A DNA stretch of 64,000 bases from Escherichia phage vB_EcoM_SYGD1. The stretch lies in the sequence record MW883059. One strand, 5' to 3'. The notes beneath the pieces were generated by a model. The model saw only the letters and a program-made list of their open reading frames with translations, was not told where the DNA came from and did not search any database. The position numbers were made by a program, and so were the translations under genes. Positions 5,913 to 22,453 of the stretch are shown in pieces (position 1 is the first letter of the stretch; every line of letters begins with the position of its first letter).

Positions 5913-7500
<1,588 letters not shown>

Positions 7501-7503
7501 GCT

Positions 7504-7557
7504 GTTTACAAGTCCCTCGTGTTGTGTTATAGTAGACTTACTGACATAACATGAGGA
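7504..7557 (+). promoter_or_regulatory. sigma70-type early promoter cassette, copy A (duplicated at 21105-21158)
   Basis: GTTTAC, 17-18 nt spacer, TATAGT, then leader ...CTGACATAACATGAGGA; 53/54 identical to the second copy. Confidence 0.6.
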
Positions 7558-7564
7558 CTTTATG

Positions 7565-8068
7565 ATGGATTTACAGCTTATTACTACTGAAATGGTCGTT
7601 GAAGCATACGGTGATACTACAGATGGGATTTCTGTATTTAAAGGAAATCGTCGAGTTGGATATATCACCGATCTTAAGAAAGATTTAGCTAAGCAAGTCA
7701 AGCGGAAAACGACCATCAAAGAATATCGAAATCGTCGTCTTGAGCAAGCCCGTGATATGCTTCCTGACGCAGTTGAGGAGATGAAAGTCTTTTTAGAAAA
7801 TCAGCTTGCGAAATATGATTGTGATGTGTTCATTAATCAGACTCAACCTAATGTTCATATTAACAAATGTAAATGCTACATCATCGTTAATCCTTTGACG
7901 GGAAAACATCGTCTTGGAATTAGTAATCCAAATCGTAGTGCATCAGATATGGCAGAAGATGTTGAGGCATGTTTTAAAATTTCTAAATCTCCAGCTGAAC
8001 ATCATATTTTAATTAACGGTCTTTCTCAAGACGATATTGTAGAGGTTATTAAAACTTTATGCATGTAA
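7565..8068 (+). CDS. alc: Alc, inhibitor of host transcription on cytosine-containing DNA
   Basis: About 167 aa MDLQLITTEMVVEAYGDTTDGISVFKGNRR...; start could be ATG 7562 or 7565. Confidence 0.8.
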   Translation: MDLQLITTEMVVEAYGDTTDGISVFKGNRRVGYITDLKKDLAKQVKRKTTIKEYRNRRLEQARDMLPDAVEEMKVFLENQLAKYDCDVFINQTQPNVHINKCKCYIIVNPLTGKHRLGISNPNRSASDMAEDVEACFKISKSPAEHHILINGLSQDDIVEVIKTLCM

Positions 8069-8412
8069 GTAATTTTACAGCTGGATTGCTATTACTTGTA
8101 ATAGCATTTGGCGGAACATCTATTATTTTAAAAAATAAGGTAGAAAGATTAGAAACATCGGTTACTGAAATTACAAAAACGGCCAATGAAAACGCTTTAG
8201 CATTAGATAATTTGCGAATTCAGTATAATTATATTGATGCGATGAATAATAAAAATCGTGAGGCAATTGCTGCTATTGAGCGTGAAAATGAAAAACTGCG
8301 CAAAGATGCAAAGAAGGCGGATGTGGTGGCTCATAAGCCAGGATTGGTTGAAAAACAAATCAACAACTCCTTCAACAAGTTCGCAGAAGACATCCAGGAC
8401 CTTTCTAAATGA
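8059..8412 (+). CDS. pseT.3: i-spanin (Rz-like inner-membrane lysis protein)
   Basis: 117 aa; N-terminal TM helix FTAGLLLLVIAFGGTSIIL then coiled-coil-like periplasmic region. Confidence 0.7.
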   Translation: MHVSNFTAGLLLLVIAFGGTSIILKNKVERLETSVTEITKTANENALALDNLRIQYNYIDAMNNKNREAIAAIERENEKLRKDAKKADVVAHKPGLVEKQINNSFNKFAEDIQDLSK

Positions 8413-8708
8413 TTAAACTATCAGCAGTAATATTATCTATTGGTCTTCTAGTTGGTTGTTCGACAAAGCCTCTAGAAGTAAAGAAAGAAACAGTTCATCC
8501 TAAATGGCCAGTACAAATAAAGTCATATGATGAAGCTAAACTATCCTGGCAAGTTAAAGTTATTGATGGTAAAGCTTGGGTCGGTATGCCATTTGAAGAT
8601 TCCCAGGAATTTCGTATTTGGCTTAATGATGTAAAACGATATGTACATGACCAAAAAACTATGATATGTTATTATCGTCAAGAGCTAAAAGAGGATAAAT
8701 GTAAATGA
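8409..8708 (+). CDS. pseT.2: o-spanin (Rz1-like outer-membrane lipoprotein)
   Basis: 99 aa; signal peptide with lipobox LLVGC; start overlaps i-spanin stop (ATGA). Confidence 0.7.
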   Translation: MIKLSAVILSIGLLVGCSTKPLEVKKETVHPKWPVQIKSYDEAKLSWQVKVIDGKAWVGMPFEDSQEFRIWLNDVKRYVHDQKTMICYYRQELKEDKCK

Positions 8709-10809: not shown

Positions 10810-10849
10810 GTTTACTTTATGGTAGAGTTGTGATATTATAGCTCTACCA
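10810..10849 (+). promoter_or_regulatory. early promoter with inverted repeat around the -10 (PeSL-like)
   Basis: GTTTAC 10810-10815; 8-bp stem 10820-10827 pairs with 10842-10849; loop carries TGATATTATAG. Confidence 0.5.
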
Positions 10850-10869
10850 AAACAAATGAGGAAAACAAA

Positions 10870-13597: not shown

Positions 13598-13774
13598 ATG
13601 GCAAAACAAGCTAAAGCAAAGAAAGCAGTTGAAAAGAAAGTTGGTGATTCTAAACGCGCTGGTTACAAGCGTGGGTCGAACTCTCGTATCAATCAAACTG
13701 TTGAGAAGATCATGCGCCGAGCACGTGCGGTTCTTCGAGATGATGCTTCTCGTTTTGGTAAGCAGAAAGCATAA
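13598..13774 (+). CDS. small basic protein (30.9 position)
   Basis: 58 aa from ATG 13598, MAKQAKAKKAVEKKVGDSKRAGYKRGSN...; ORF track start at 13556 is further upstream. Confidence 0.55.
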   Translation: MAKQAKAKKAVEKKVGDSKRAGYKRGSNSRINQTVEKIMRRARAVLRDDASRFGKQKA

Positions 13775-13779
13775 GTTGA

Positions 13780-13808
13780 GGACTCCTTCGGGAGTCCTTT
13801 TTTATTTT
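13780..13808 (+). terminator. rho-independent terminator
   Basis: GGACTCC-TTCG-GGAGTCC hairpin followed by TTTTTTATTTT. Confidence 0.65.
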
Positions 13809-13827
13809 CCAAAGATTGCACAAAGTT

Positions 13828-13857
13828 GTTTACAGTACGGTTCCTTTGTGATAGTAT
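13828..13857 (+). promoter_or_regulatory. candidate early promoter upstream of 13885 ORF
   Basis: GTTTAC 13828-13833, about 18 nt, TAGTAT; imperfect inverted repeat CCTTTG...CAAAGG nearby. Confidence 0.4.
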
Positions 13858-13884
13858 TATCTTACACAAACAAAGGAGAATAAA

Positions 13885-14219: not shown

Positions 14220-14259
14220 GTTTACTTTGGTACAGGATATGATATTATATACCTGTACC
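14220..14259 (+). promoter_or_regulatory. early promoter with inverted repeat around the -10 (PeSL-like)
   Basis: GTTTAC 14220-14225; GGTACAGG 14229-14236 pairs with CCTGTACC 14252-14259; loop ATATGATATTATATA holds the -10. Confidence 0.5.
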
Positions 14260-14284
14260 GCAATTAAACATCTTGGAGAATAAA

Positions 14285-15175: not shown

Positions 15176-15378
15176 ATATAATTAATAAGATTTTTGGAAT
15201 TCAGTACATTAAGGTCACATATAAAGTAACGTATAAAGGTCCGTATACCGATGAACATGAAGAACCACAAGTTAAGTCTATTATATTAGAAAAGGACCCT
15301 AACTGGCCAGTTGAATTTCGTCTTCCTTGCTATGGTCATTGGGCTGATGTTGAAATTATAAGTATTGAAAATGTCTGA
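15172..15378 (+). CDS. hypothetical protein (30.4 position)
   Basis: 68-codon ORF. Confidence 0.5.
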   Translation: MNIINKIFGIQYIKVTYKVTYKGPYTDEHEEPQVKSIILEKDPNWPVEFRLPCYGHWADVEIISIENV

Positions 15379-15829: not shown

Positions 15830-16689
15830 AGCCTACTATTTTGACTGATATTGATGGAGTATGTTTAAGCTGGCAATCAGGTCTTCCTTATTTTGCTCAG
15901 AAATATAATCTTCCGTTAGAACATATTTTAAAAATGATCCAAGATGAGAAATTTATTTCTCCAGGTAAACTCTTTAATTGTGATGAAGAACTTGGCGTCA
16001 AGTTAATTGAAAAATACAATCGTTCAGATTTTATTCGTTACTTGTCTCCGTATAAAGATGCCCTGTGTGTAATTAACAAATTAAAAGAAGATTATAATTT
16101 TGTAGCTGTTACAGCATTGGGTGATTCTATTGACGCTCTGTTGAATCGTCAATTTAATTTGAATGCTCTTTTTCCTGGTGCCTTCTCAGAAGTAATGATG
16201 TGTGGTCATGATTCTTCAAAAGAAGAGTTATTCAAAAAGGCAAAAGAGAAATATAACGTAATTTGTTATATTGACGATCTCGCTCACCACTGCGACCACG
16301 CGAGTGAAATATTAAATGTTCCGGTTTATTGGATGGCTCGAGGAGAGCGTGACAATATTCCAAAAACTGCGCAGCGAGTTTATACATGGAATGATGTAGA
16401 AAATAAGCTTTTTTCGCCGAAGGAAAATAAAGAAAGTTTTGATAGTGAAAAAGCTATAAAAGATGTAATTGAGAAGATGGTTAAAAACGATTCTTTTCGT
16501 TGGAACACTACCTGGAGAACTCCTGGATTTAATCCTTATAATCCATATTATACGCATCCATATAATCCATATTATACACACCCGTATCATATGAATCCAT
16601 TCCATACGTGGAGTTATACTAAGCCTGGCGACGCAGGGTATTTTAATAGACTTACTAGTGGTGATAATATTTTCCAAGGAGCATTCTAA
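15826..16689 (+). CDS. HAD-type 5'(3')-nucleotidase-like protein with C-terminal Pro/Tyr-rich repeat (30.2 position)
   Basis: 287 aa; N-terminal ILTDIDGV and later YIDDLAHH; C-terminal NPYNPYYTHPYNPYYTHPYHMNPFH. Confidence 0.65.
   Translation: MKPTILTDIDGVCLSWQSGLPYFAQKYNLPLEHILKMIQDEKFISPGKLFNCDEELGVKLIEKYNRSDFIRYLSPYKDALCVINKLKEDYNFVAVTALGDSIDALLNRQFNLNALFPGAFSEVMMCGHDSSKEELFKKAKEKYNVICYIDDLAHHCDHASEILNVPVYWMARGERDNIPKTAQRVYTWNDVENKLFSPKENKESFDSEKAIKDVIEKMVKNDSFRWNTTWRTPGFNPYNPYYTHPYNPYYTHPYHMNPFHTWSYTKPGDAGYFNRLTSGDNIFQGAF
16537..16584 (+). repeat. 24-bp tandem duplication inside the 15826 ORF
   Basis: TATAATCCATATTATACGCATCCA followed by TATAATCCATATTATACACACCCG. Confidence 0.7.
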
Positions 16690-18649: not shown

Positions 18650-20746
18650 ATGATGGAACTTATTACAGAATTATTTGACGAAGATACTACTCTTCCGATT
18701 ACAAACTTAAATCCAAAGAAGAAAATACCGCAAATTTTTTCAGTTCATGTTGATGACGCAATTGAACAACCAGGCTTTCGTTTATGTACCTATACATCTG
18801 GAGGTGATACTAATCGCGATTTAAAAATGGGCGATAAAATGATGCATATTGTTCCTTTTACATTAACTGCTAAAGGTTCAATTGCTAAATTAAAAGGTCT
18901 CGGTCCAAGCCCAATTAATTACATCAATTCAGTTTTTACTGTTGCAATGCAGACGATGCGTCAGTATAAAATTGATGCATGTATGCTCCGTATTCTTAAG
19001 TCTAAAACTGCTGGTCAAGCTCGACAAATTCAAGTTATTGCTGATAGACTTATCCGTAGTCGTTCAGGTGGCAGATACGTCCTTCTTAAGGAACTCTGGG
19101 ATTACGATAAAAAGTATGCATATATTCTTATACATCGCAAAAATGTATCACTAGAAGACATTCCAGGAGTTCCGGAAATTAGTACAGAGCTCTTTACTAA
19201 AGTTGAATCGAAGGTCGGCGATGTTTATATCAATAAAGATACCGGAGCTCAAGTAACTAAAAATGAGGCAATTGCAGCATCTATTGCGCAAGAAAACGAT
19301 AAACGTTCTGACCAAGCTGTAATCGTTAAAGTTAAAATTTCCCGTAGAGCAATTGCACAAAGTCAGTCATTGGAATCTTCTAGATTTGAAAGTGAATTAT
19401 TCCAAAAGTATGAATCTACCGCAGCTAATTTCAATAAACCTGCTACCGCTCCTTTAATTCCCGAAGCGGAAGAAATGAAACTTGGAATTAATTCATTAGC
19501 TTCTAAAACCAAGGCAGCAAAAATTATTGCCGAAGGAACCGCAAATGAACTTCATTATGATTATAAATTCTTTTCAAAAAGTGAGGTTGATGAAGTTTCT
19601 GAAAAGATTAAAGATGTAATTCTTAATGCGATTAAAAATGAACCAACTACTTCAATAAAATGTTTAGAGAAATACGCAGCAGCCGTTAATCAACTCTTTG
19701 AAGAATATAAAGATAATTGGCTTGATAAACATAATAAAACTCGTAAAGGGCAGTCAGATGAAGTCTGGGAAGAAATAACTAAAAATTCCTGGAACGCAGC
19801 AAAAACTAAATTCCTCAAAAGAATGATTTATAGTTTTTCTGGAATTGGTGCAGGTCCAATGATTGATATTACTATTGCCCGTGATGGTTCTAAATATACT
19901 CCATCACAAAAGCGTGGCATTAGAGAGTATTGTGGTTCAGGATATACTGACATCAATAATCTTCTTTTAGGACGCTACAATCCAGAACGATATGATGTAA
20001 TGAGTGAAAAAGAAATTGAATCTGCTATAAATAACTTAGATTCAGCTTTTGAAAATGGTGACCGTATACCAGAAGGCATTACAGTTTATCGTGCTCAAAG
20101 TATGACTGCTCCTATATACGAAGCACTAGTTAAAAATAAAGTGTTCTATTTCAGAAATTTTGTATCTACTTCTTTAACTCCTATCATTTTTGGACGTTTT
20201 GGAATTACACATGCTGGTATCGGTCTTTTAGAACCAGAAGCTCGTAATGAATTAACAGTTGATAAAAATGAAGAAGGAATAACTATTAATCCAAACGAAA
20301 TAAGAGCGTATAAAGAAAATCCTGAATACGTTAAAGTTCAAATAGGATGGGCAATTGATGGAGCTCATAAAGTTAATGTTGTATATCCAGGAAGTCTCGG
20401 AATAGCAACTGAAGCTGAAGTTATTTTACCACGCGGATTGATGGTCAAAGTTAATAAAATAACTGATGCTTCTAATAATGACGGAACAACATCTAATAAT
20501 ACAAAACTCATTCAAGCTGAAGTTATGACTACGGAAGAACTCACCGAATCAGTAATTTATGACGGTGACCGTCTAATGGAAACTGGTGAAGTAGTTGCAA
20601 TGACAGATGATATTGAAATAGAAGACAGAGTTGACTTTGCATCATTTGTTTCATCAAATGTTAAACAGAAAGCAGAATCATCTCTCGGAATTATTGCGTC
20701 TTGCATAGATATTACAAACATGCCTTACAAGTTCGTTCAAGGATAA
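18650..20746 (+). CDS. alt: Alt ADP-ribosyltransferase (virion-packaged, modifies host RNA polymerase)
   Basis: 698 aa; MELITELFD... N-terminus; C-terminal ART-like YRAQ / STS / EAE elements. Confidence 0.9.
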   Translation: MMELITELFDEDTTLPITNLNPKKKIPQIFSVHVDDAIEQPGFRLCTYTSGGDTNRDLKMGDKMMHIVPFTLTAKGSIAKLKGLGPSPINYINSVFTVAMQTMRQYKIDACMLRILKSKTAGQARQIQVIADRLIRSRSGGRYVLLKELWDYDKKYAYILIHRKNVSLEDIPGVPEISTELFTKVESKVGDVYINKDTGAQVTKNEAIAASIAQENDKRSDQAVIVKVKISRRAIAQSQSLESSRFESELFQKYESTAANFNKPATAPLIPEAEEMKLGINSLASKTKAAKIIAEGTANELHYDYKFFSKSEVDEVSEKIKDVILNAIKNEPTTSIKCLEKYAAAVNQLFEEYKDNWLDKHNKTRKGQSDEVWEEITKNSWNAAKTKFLKRMIYSFSGIGAGPMIDITIARDGSKYTPSQKRGIREYCGSGYTDINNLLLGRYNPERYDVMSEKEIESAINNLDSAFENGDRIPEGITVYRAQSMTAPIYEALVKNKVFYFRNFVSTSLTPIIFGRFGITHAGIGLLEPEARNELTVDKNEEGITINPNEIRAYKENPEYVKVQIGWAIDGAHKVNVVYPGSLGIATEAEVILPRGLMVKVNKITDASNNDGTTSNNTKLIQAEVMTTEELTESVIYDGDRLMETGEVVAMTDDIEIEDRVDFASFVSSNVKQKAESSLGIIASCIDITNMPYKFVQG

Positions 20747-20749
20747 ATC

Positions 20750-21136
20750 ATGGAACTTATTACAGAATTATTTGACGGCGCTTCGGCGCCGGTTGTTAAC
20801 TTAAATCCTAAGCATAAAATACCTCAAATTTTTGCTATTCAAGCAGGTGAAGAAAGCGTGCTTCCTGGATTTAGATTTTGTACATACACCTCTGGCGGTG
20901 ATACAAATAAAAACGTTAAGCCAGGCGATAAAATGATGCATATCGTAATGATAGGTGTTAATGAGAAACTATCATTAGTTAAACTTAAAAACTTGGGTGG
21001 AAATCCAATTGGTGTCATTAATGCGGTTTTTGATACTGCTCTTCAAACAATGAAACAGTATAAAATCGACGCATGCCTATTACGCGTACTAAAAAGTTCA
21101 AAATGTAGTTTACAAGTCCCTCGTGTTGTGTTATAG
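20750..21136 (+). CDS. truncated paralogue of the Alt N-terminal region (128 aa)
   Basis: MELITELFDGASAPVVNLNPKHKIPQIF... aligns with Alt residues 2-125; last 9 codons are read from the duplicated promoter cassette. Confidence 0.6.
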   Translation: MELITELFDGASAPVVNLNPKHKIPQIFAIQAGEESVLPGFRFCTYTSGGDTNKNVKPGDKMMHIVMIGVNEKLSLVKLKNLGGNPIGVINAVFDTALQTMKQYKIDACLLRVLKSSKCSLQVPRVVL

Positions 21137-21158
21137 TAGATTTACTGACATAACATGA
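21105..21158 (+). promoter_or_regulatory. sigma70-type early promoter cassette, copy B (duplicate of 7504-7557)
   Basis: GTTTACAAGTCCCTCGTGTTGTGTTATAGTAGATTTACTGACATAACATGAGGA; one mismatch to copy A. Confidence 0.55.
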
Positions 21159-21168
21159 GGAACATAAA

Positions 21169-21459
21169 ATGAAATCTTCTTTGCGCTTTTTAGGTCAAGA
21201 ACTCGTAGTTGAAGGCGTTATTCCTGCTGATAACGCTTTTAATGAAGCTGTTTACGATGAATTTATCAAAATTTTTGGAACAGATAAAAAGTTCGGAATT
21301 TTTCCTTCTGAAAATTTTTCAAAGCCAGAACAGACTGAAAGCATTTTCCAAGGTGTAGTAACAGGTAAATTTGAGTCAGAAGCTCCGGTAAAAATTGAAG
21401 TTTATATTGAAGACAGTTTAGTTGCTTCAGTTGCTGCTTTTATTTCATTCCGTAAATAA
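21169..21459 (+). CDS. hypothetical protein
   Basis: 96-codon ORF with GAGGA RBS; last + strand gene before the convergent terminator. Confidence 0.55.
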   Translation: MKSSLRFLGQELVVEGVIPADNAFNEAVYDEFIKIFGTDKKFGIFPSENFSKPEQTESIFQGVVTGKFESEAPVKIEVYIEDSLVASVAAFISFRK

Positions 21460-21464
21460 AAATA

Positions 21465-21484
21465 TGGGGACCTTTCGGTCCCCA
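21465..21484. terminator. bidirectional terminator between the 21169 ORF (+) and gene 54 (-)
   Basis: TGGGGACC-TTTC-GGTCCCCA with T-rich flank on + strand. Confidence 0.65.
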
Positions 21485-21487
21485 TTG

Positions 21488-22453
21488 TTATATTGCTCCT
21501 AATATTTTACTTTGCGAATTGACAATTCCTGTCATAGTATTAATGTTTGAAATGCTTCCTGCAGTTCCTCCTAATCTACTAAGTCGTGAAAGCGAATTAG
21601 ATAGTCCAGTAACACCTCCGCTATTTCCGAGAACGCTTTGAATGCCATTTATAGTAGCAGATTCAAGCCACTCAAGCGCAGCTTGTCTATCAACCGCTCC
21701 AGCCTGCATGACTCTATACGCAAAAGTAACATCAAATGTAGTTATTTGGTTATCTCCATCGTATGATAACTCAGGAGCACTCACTGACACTGGAATGCAT
21801 CCGGTGAACATCACAGCAGTATGAGGTAATCCATTACGAGCATGAAGATTAACCTGAATGTCTGCCTCGACATCTTGTGGCAAAGCGCGTAATCCAGTTA
21901 CTGGGTCTTGAACAGCGTTAACCCAGTCTTGCATTGCACGATAATTACATGCTTCTGAATCCATCCTAAATGAAATAACCAAAGGGTCTAATTCTCTCCC
22001 AGTTATACGAATATTAGGAGAATTATAGTTCCAGTCAGTTTCATAGGATAATCTATTCTCTGGCATTTTTACAGAATATATCATCAATCCAGATGAGTTA
22101 TATGCCATGTTAAAGAAGTCAATTAAATATGTACCAACTGTAAATGAGCCTAATAAACTTTGAACTGTACGCTGACTCATGGCACCAATAAGATATTTAC
22201 TAACCCCTGATTTTCTTATCAGTTTTTGTGTGCCAGCAGTAATTAGCGTAGTAATTCCCTGATTAATATCGCCTTGAGTTAATCCTAACCAATCTGAATT
22301 TAGGCCCAAGTTATTATAAGAAAAGTTGCTAATTGAACTTATCAACGAAGAGCTTTTAGTTGATGGAGTTGTCGCAAAAACGCAGCTAAACATATTATTA
22401 CGCTGGAAATCTGCGTTTATTGCTTGATTATTAAATTCCTCTAAAGAATACAT
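21488..22453 (-). CDS. 54: baseplate tail tube initiator
   Basis: 321 aa MYSLEEFNNQAINADFQRNNMF...; position and size match T4 gp54. Confidence 0.85.
   Translation of the reverse strand: MYSLEEFNNQAINADFQRNNMFSCVFATTPSTKSSSLISSISNFSYNNLGLNSDWLGLTQGDINQGITTLITAGTQKLIRKSGVSKYLIGAMSQRTVQSLLGSFTVGTYLIDFFNMAYNSSGLMIYSVKMPENRLSYETDWNYNSPNIRITGRELDPLVISFRMDSEACNYRAMQDWVNAVQDPVTGLRALPQDVEADIQVNLHARNGLPHTAVMFTGCIPVSVSAPELSYDGDNQITTFDVTFAYRVMQAGAVDRQAALEWLESATINGIQSVLGNSGGVTGLSNSLSRLSRLGGTAGSISNINTMTGIVNSQSKILGAI

Follow-up and report, generated by a model that had tools for sequence, protein, structure and literature searches.

The unrelated early genes alc and alt.-3 of Tequatrovirus phages are preceded by two nearly identical copies of a 54-bp cassette that combines a predicted immediate-early promoter, a predicted hairpin and the SD sequence of the gene downstream. 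On balance we favour an explanation in which this composite promoter–hairpin–SD cassette insulates its gene from upstream transcription, was duplicated by gene conversion in the ancestor of the genus and has probably been exchanged between the two sites since. The analysis started from a 64,000-nucleotide stretch of Escherichia phage vB_EcoM_SYGD1 (sequence record MW883059), referred to here as the window, which derives from a Tequatrovirus and whose orientation is the reverse complement of the T4 map.

The 54-mer GTTTACAAGTCCCTCGTGTTGTGTTATAGTAGA(C/T)TTACTGACATAACATGAGGA lies on the + strand of the 64-kb window at 7504–7557 (copy A) and 21108–21161 (copy B), a spacing of 13,604 bp. The first-pass annotation of this DNA had reported a single mismatch between the copies, and recounting upheld it: they are identical at 53 of 54 positions, with nt 34 being C or T. 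Copy A was also where that annotation had put it, whereas its coordinates for copy B (21105–21158) were 3 nt too low. When further copies were sought, matches to the 54-mer with no more than three mismatches numbered exactly two in the window and none in 100 dinucleotide-preserving shuffles, and a repeat search of the whole window recovered only the 54-mer and the start of the Alt paralogue as long near-identical dispersed repeats. The edges of the cassette are sharp. Upstream, the sequence reads ...taagct at A and ...aatgta at B; downstream, identity is lost at once, with ctttatgatgg at A and acataaaatg at B. Other T4-type early promoter and leader stretches, taken from the window and from outgroups, were just 54–75% identical to the cassette (32/59 to 42/56 aligned positions), and the other early promoters inside the window were 54–67% like it. 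By this sequence comparison, the identity of the two copies across promoter and untranslated leader is far above promoter consensus, as had been proposed. The two copies and their neighbours are arranged as follows, in window coordinates.

6340–7500, + strand, rnlA (RNA ligase 1), which reads into copy A
7504–7557, + strand, copy A of the cassette, flanked by the rnlA stop (7500) and the alc start
7505–7510, 7525–7526 and 7528–7533, + strand, −35 TTTACA, TG and −10 TATAGT of copy A
7515–7556, + strand, predicted hairpin of copy A (18 bp, 2-nt bulge, loop GACU)
7540 and 7553–7557, + strand, predicted start A and SD GAGGA of copy A
7565–8068, + strand, alc (host transcription inhibitor), served by copy A
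18650–20746, + strand, alt (ADP-ribosyltransferase, 698 aa)
20750–21136, + strand, truncated Alt paralogue of 128 aa, equivalent to T4 alt.-1 plus alt.-2
21089–21097, + strand, CTAAAAAGT, junction of a 1,699-bp deletion, 10 nt upstream of copy B
21108–21161, + strand, copy B of the cassette, flanked by the truncated Alt paralogue and alt.-3
21109–21114, 21132–21137, 21144 and 21157–21161, + strand, −35, −10, predicted start and SD of copy B
21119–21160, + strand, predicted hairpin of copy B (stem as in copy A, loop GAUU)
21169–21459, + strand, alt.-3 (96 aa, dispensable), the gene served by copy B

The start codon of alc is the ATG at 7562 or 7565 and that of alt.-3 the ATG at 21169, which leaves 4 or 7 nt between SD and ATG for alc and 7 nt for alt.-3. 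T4 itself carries the two copies at 136283–136336 and 123040–123093 of NC_000866.4. The alt.-3 protein is uncharacterised and dispensable, and C-terminal extensions of Alt.-3 escape the CmdTAC defence system (PMC11618068). The gap between alt.-3 and late gene 54, which converge, holds a G/C-rich hairpin with a perfect 9-bp stem (ATGGGGACC-TTTC-GGTCCCCAT, 21464–21485) that scanned as terminator-like on both strands. Elsewhere in the window, an ORF resembling gene 30.2 holds a tandem 24-nt duplication, ATCCTTATAATCCATATTATACGC / ATCCATATAATCCATATTATACAC, at 16532–16579.

Each copy appears to be a strong sigma-70 immediate-early promoter. The early-type −35/−10 pair and the complete leader with SD that had been described in the repeat were both found: a −35 TTTACA (nt 2–7), a 17-nt spacer with TG at nt 22–23, a −10 TATAGT (nt 25–30), and a predicted start at A37, from which a leader of 18 nt runs to the end of the SD GAGGA (nt 50–54). 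In independent annotations, fPS-90 has a predicted early promoter at A and Lutter a promoter at B. We found no T4 start-site map covering either cassette in the searchable literature, so the start is predicted, not measured. Time-resolved omics of T4 class alc and alt.-3 as early RNA and early protein, and alt, alt.-1 and alt.-2, which lie directly upstream of copy B, as middle RNA (PMC9697503 supplements), a contrast that fits a separate early promoter at B. The cassette resembles the T4 early promoters of the UP/−35/TGn/−10 class (Hinton 2010, PMC2988021) in its GTTTAC-type −35, TGn and near-consensus −10, in the A/T-rich region upstream and in the early expression of the genes served. It differs from that class in that the repeat excludes the site-specific UP region, yet spans the whole leader.

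The most striking feature of the cassette, absent from the first-pass annotation, is its stem-loop. Nucleotides 12–53 form an interrupted inverted repeat, for which an 18-bp hairpin is predicted, with a bulge of 2 nt and a loop of 4 nt. The predicted stability was −22 kcal/mol (z = −5.0 at A and −5.4 at B), and none of 200 shuffles was as stable. The 5′ arm of the hairpin consists of the promoter spacer and the −10, and the 3′ arm is the leader including GAGG of the SD; CCUC in the promoter spacer (nt 12–15) pairs with this GAGG (nt 50–53). By its geometry, the predicted start A37 falls just 3′ of the loop and inside the helix, so that the cassette's own transcript would lack the 5′ arm. Partition-function calculations gave an SD unpaired probability of about 0 at both sites for read-through RNA. 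For the cassette's own transcript (start at nt 37–41), the corresponding values were 0.65–0.99 at site A and 0.05–0.4 at site B, where the SD was mostly paired, held by a weak alternative fold of −5.8 kcal/mol.

Natural variation was largely compatible with the predicted stem. Across 21 distinct alleles, 97.6% of pair cells remained standard pairs; ten pairs were invariant and six changed on one side yet remained paired, for example from G·U to A–U, from G·U to G–C or from G–C to G·U. Most variation lay in the loop (nt 32–34) and the bulge (nt 27). The few pair-breaking variants were G29A, G40T, G16T and C12A, and G29A breaks the small upper stem but turns the −10 into a perfect TATAAT. Double compensatory changes in the stem were absent from the 21 alleles, and the covariation score equalled that of the shuffled control. 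The alc promoter of Dhakavirus follows the same anti-SD/SD hairpin design. The predicted hairpin is thus backed by thermodynamics, by patterns of tolerance and by the Dhakavirus parallel, and not by covariation.

These folds suggest that the hairpin gates the SDs of alc and alt.-3. RNA entering from rnlA, or from alt and the Alt paralogue, would fold the 18-bp hairpin and hide the SD, and transcripts from the cassette's own promoter, which would start inside the hairpin and lack its 5′ arm, would leave the SD free. Each cassette would insulate its gene: translation of alc and alt.-3 would draw on the early transcripts of the two genes themselves and not on read-through RNA. The same arrangement is documented for the T4 genes e, soc, 49 and I-TevI, in which a promoter inside an SD-sequestering helix yields the only translatable transcript (PMC3014915). 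As in those genes, a helix in the upstream RNA would sequester the SD and an embedded promoter would produce a shorter transcript lacking the 5′ arm. However, in e, soc, 49 and I-TevI the promoter is a late one and serves to delay expression, whereas the cassettes embed a predicted immediate-early promoter, and the effect of the cassette would be insulation from early, middle or late read-through from upstream. The hairpin was not flagged as a terminator by a consensus terminator scan and is not followed by a U tract; the depositors of SA20RB nevertheless annotate the cassette-B hairpin as a rho-independent terminator (WebGeSTer; locus L015, 702–751) despite the missing U tract. Rfam covariance models gave no match at either cassette, even at E values up to 1.

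Three more GTTTAC-type early promoters in the window carry strong inverted repeats across the −10, at 10810–10863, 13828–13881 and 14220–14273 (z = −4.3, −2.4 and −6.1, respectively). At the 13828 promoter, UCCUUUGU pairs with ACAAAGGA, so that the SD is predicted to be sequestered there too. Such folding suggests that promoters with an anti-SD hairpin may be a recurrent design in the window. A weak Rfam match to Atu_C8 nearby (13730–13813; 31.4 bits against a gathering score of 50, E = 0.0055) overlaps a terminator-like hairpin at 13778–13799 and is most likely a chance match to that hairpin.

The cassette occupies the same two positions throughout the phages sampled. Megablast with the 54-mer returned 628 places in 411 phage records, with at most two per record among the matches listed (60 records). 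Genomes that seemed to carry a single copy in this survey proved to be an artefact of word size, as every such genome that we fetched has both copies. Copies were extracted from 17 phage genomes and, by means of a degenerate pattern, from contigs of IMG/VR and metagenomes; divergence partly guided the choice of genomes, which are not independent of one another phylogenetically. Both copies were present in 25 of 25 sampled genomes or contig sets that had both sites. All 55 extracted copies (27 at A and 28 at B) sat in the same two contexts; a third context was not found among them, and the 54-mer did not behave as a universal leader of unrelated early genes. The flanking genes were the same in all 25 Tequatrovirus genomes and in three other genera, and the 54 bp of the cassette have no coding capacity.

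Among the four genera compared, the near-identity of the two promoters is confined to Tequatrovirus. We compared syntenic positions, as had been recommended, in three other genera, represented by Gaprivervirus VR20, Dhakavirus IME341 and Mosigvirus JS09. Gene order was the same and an early promoter was present at both positions, whereas the 54-mer identity was absent: within each of these phages, the A and B promoters were only 64–76% alike, the background level, which places the origin of the identity in the Tequatrovirus ancestor. In IME341 and JS09, the gene upstream of site B ends in a TAG that shares the G of GTTTAC; in VR20 this stop lies a few nt upstream of the promoter. Because promoters already stood at both syntenic sites in the outgroups, the event was a replacement of a promoter core, not the insertion of a gene-carrying cassette. 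One early promoter-leader core would have been copied over the other by short-patch homologous recombination, that is, gene conversion, with the shared −35 (GTTTACAA) and SD (ACATGAGGA) consensus sequences serving as homology anchors. These anchors are plausible, as the edges of the repeat coincide with the two motifs, which are common to the ancestral promoters. Identity leaves the donor as a tie (42/56 positions of the cassette agree with the Dhakavirus A promoter and 41/57 with its B counterpart); we tentatively take the alc copy as the donor, because only the alc promoter of Dhakavirus has the anti-SD/SD hairpin design. VR20 further carries, between rnlA and alc, an extra 77-aa ORF annotated as similar to Alc (locus L016, 14623–14856), which is preceded by a G/C-rich terminator-like hairpin overlapping the −35 of its promoter.

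Copy B had been said to coincide with the truncation point of the Alt paralogue. This holds approximately for position, in that the junction (21089–21097) lies 10 nt before the cassette, and does not hold as a causal link. The 128-aa ORF is 62% identical to Alt residues 2–118, with homology to Alt ending at codon 116. The paralogue retains its full length of 2,058 nt in RB32 and most relatives, where its TAG stop shares one base with the cassette, namely the first G. From the form seen in T4 and the window, 1,699 bp are missing between two direct repeats of 9 bp, CTAAAAAGT, located at 15283 and 16982 of the RB32 locus (L008), and the deletion shifts the frame such that the ORF tail enters copy B and stops at a TAG inside the −10. 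As read from these alignments, the alt.-1/alt.-2 remnant of T4 is the product of a microhomology deletion unrelated to the cassette. The cassette as the cause of the truncation was ruled out, given that the junction falls at the 9-bp repeats and outside the 54-bp repeat.

Sequence variation suggests that conversion between A and B has continued since the ancestral copying. The copies comprise 21 distinct alleles, and statistics were computed on 24 genomes. No fixed difference separated the two sites (per 54 nt, d_AB was 2.31, a value between pi_A at 1.78 and pi_B at 2.48). Four alleles were found at both, and six variant states (15T, 16A, 29A, 32A, 33A and 34T) of the 10 at A and 11 at B were common to them, an overlap with a hypergeometric P of 4e-6 over all 162 states and of 0.017 if only the observed polymorphic positions vary. 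Six of the 24 genomes, with four different alleles, had identical A and B copies (permutation P = 0.003, or 0.022 on unique genotype pairs). By eye, the association of A and B states within genomes looked weak at individual positions. Between genomes, the cassette copies were 3.3% and 4.6% diverse, compared with 2.7–3.8% for flanking coding sequence, and this diversity, no lower than that of the flanks, means that strong purifying selection alone does not explain the identity of A and B. The best single candidate for a recent A-to-B transfer is BF15, whose copy B carries an allele that is rare at B and equal to BF15's own A, whereas its nearest relatives in the B flank carry another allele.

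The window itself is a mosaic. Its rnlA–alc region (6500–8500) is 99.8% identical to phage BF15, and its alt.-3 region (20100–22100) is closest to phage N2 (97.8%) and carries the T4-type deletion; the paralogue of BF15 is full length. With this BF15-like/N2-like ancestry, the near-identity of the window's own two copies need not reflect conversion within this genome, and we rejected intragenomic conversion as an unnecessary source of their shared A33. Among 53 copies, four-gamete incompatibilities were many within a single site, even between positions 2–3 nt apart (29/32, 32/34 and 33/34). These must reflect either heteroduplex repair in very short patches or repeated mutation of the few positions free to vary, and such recurrent mutation (at 16, 29 and 32–34) could yield part of the shared polymorphism.

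According to Singer et al. 1982, as cited in PMC2839356, T4 recombination can work with homology patches shorter than 50 bp. If the direct repeats crossed over, a 13.6-kb segment would be lost or duplicated, and with it gene 31, which is annotated as essential, and the DNA ligase gene, so that presumably only non-crossover products persist. The pattern resembles concerted evolution through ectopic gene conversion between dispersed repeats, such as the bacterial rRNA operons (PMC8022953), in the lack of fixed differences and the alleles held in common. Compared with the rRNA operons, however, the cassette tract measures just 54 bp, which is the lower limit for homologous recombination in T4, and the evidence is statistical and modest. 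Our literature search returned nothing relevant on gene conversion in T4-like promoters.

A rival history would have one ancient copying just before the Tequatrovirus radiation, followed by independent evolution, with allele sharing produced by recurrent mutation. We regard this as unlikely. In its favour, both copies occur in all sampled genomes and the identity is absent in the outgroups, the commonest allele is the same at both sites, the within-site incompatibilities show homoplasy or very short repair patches, and mosaic ancestry accounts for the A33 shared by the window's copies. What it handles poorly is the recurrence at both sites of multi-site derived haplotypes (29A with 32A, 32A alone on the common 33T background, and 33A), the excess of identical within-genome pairs (P 0.003 to 0.022), the inclusion of a transversion among the six shared states, and the BF15 B allele. 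Convergence, in which two independent promoters were selected to the same sequence for promoter strength, hairpin and SD, would draw on the fact that 46 of the 54 positions belong to a recognisable element (−35, TGn, −10, stem or SD). Yet in three other genera the promoters with this task at these two sites are just 64–76% alike, the other early promoters of the window are 54–67% like the cassette, and many sequences can build such stems while the identity here also spans loop and bulge; we consider convergence extremely improbable.

The first-pass annotation had likened the repeat to the PeSL (promoter-early stem-loop) elements of T4-type phages (Arbiol et al. 2010, PMC2839356; Comeau et al. 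2014, PMC4122927), and the likeness survives for architecture (promoter, stem-loop and SD) but not for mobility or the shuffling of gene modules, given that 55 copies occupy two contexts. Like a PeSL, the cassette joins a sigma-70-like early promoter to a stem-loop and an SD/start; its stem-loop overlaps the −10, as in one of the five described PeSL subclasses; its promoter fits the PST/T4 PeSL consensus TTTACW-N17-TAYWAT; and it may, as PeSL do, serve as a substrate for recombination between short homologous regulatory sequences. A mobile PeSL-type element, moving by recombination or as mini-circles and shuffling gene modules, would further be in keeping with the PeSL–PeSL crossovers between −10 and SD demonstrated in RB49 and phi1 and with the varying length of the gene adjoining copy B. 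That length variation, however, is the work of the 9-bp-repeat deletion, which ends 10 nt short of the cassette; synteny of the flanking genes extends over four genera, with a promoter already at each site; and excision between the copies would yield a 13.6-kb circle containing essential gene 31 and the DNA ligase gene. We found neither mobility genes nor contexts beyond the two. PeSL flank ORFans in hyperplastic regions, whereas the cassettes stand 13.6 kb apart in conserved synteny, and no insertion or deletion is attributable to them. Their stem is rich in A/U and G·U and lacks the G-run/C-run and AGNA/TCNT motifs of PeSL as well as a U tract, and PST/T4 PeSL stem-loops, unlike that of the cassette, are described just upstream of the promoter. 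With respect to PeSL-type recombination, alleles common to both sites could reflect non-crossover exchange or homoplasy. The two PeSL papers (PMC2839356, PMC4122927) mention neither an SD-sequestering role nor gene conversion, alc, alt or rnlA. The cassette thus fits the structural definition of PeSL and does not show their contextual and behavioural features (hyperplastic regions, ORFans, indels and mini-circles), and we hold movement as a mobile element to be very improbable.

From the outgroup comparison we conclude that at least one conversion occurred in the ancestor of the genus, and later exchange, in which the copies probably swapped sequence again, is likely. More tentatively, and with somewhat less confidence than we place in the composite explanation, we consider a joint reading in which the two copies are kept interchangeable by ongoing ectopic conversion across 13.6 kb and in which early-promoter anti-SD hairpins, with the 13828 promoter as a second example, are a general means of insulation in T-even phages.

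T4 is the reference phage, and we found no paper in the searchable literature that reports the identity of its alc and alt.-3 promoter-leaders (the classic compilations of T4 promoters were outside the scope of this search). For annotators and phage engineers, the cassettes are a warning that the alc and alt.-3 loci can recombine. If exchange between the sites is ongoing, the pair would be a compact natural system in which to measure ectopic gene conversion at minimal homology length in T4-type phages, and would provide direct population-level evidence of recombination between PeSL-like cassettes. Should the joint reading hold, homologous exchange over 54 bp in T4 could be quantified with the pair as a natural reporter. 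If SD gating is borne out, the device of a late promoter inside an SD-sequestering hairpin would extend to immediate-early genes, and PeSL stem-loops would have a second role besides termination.
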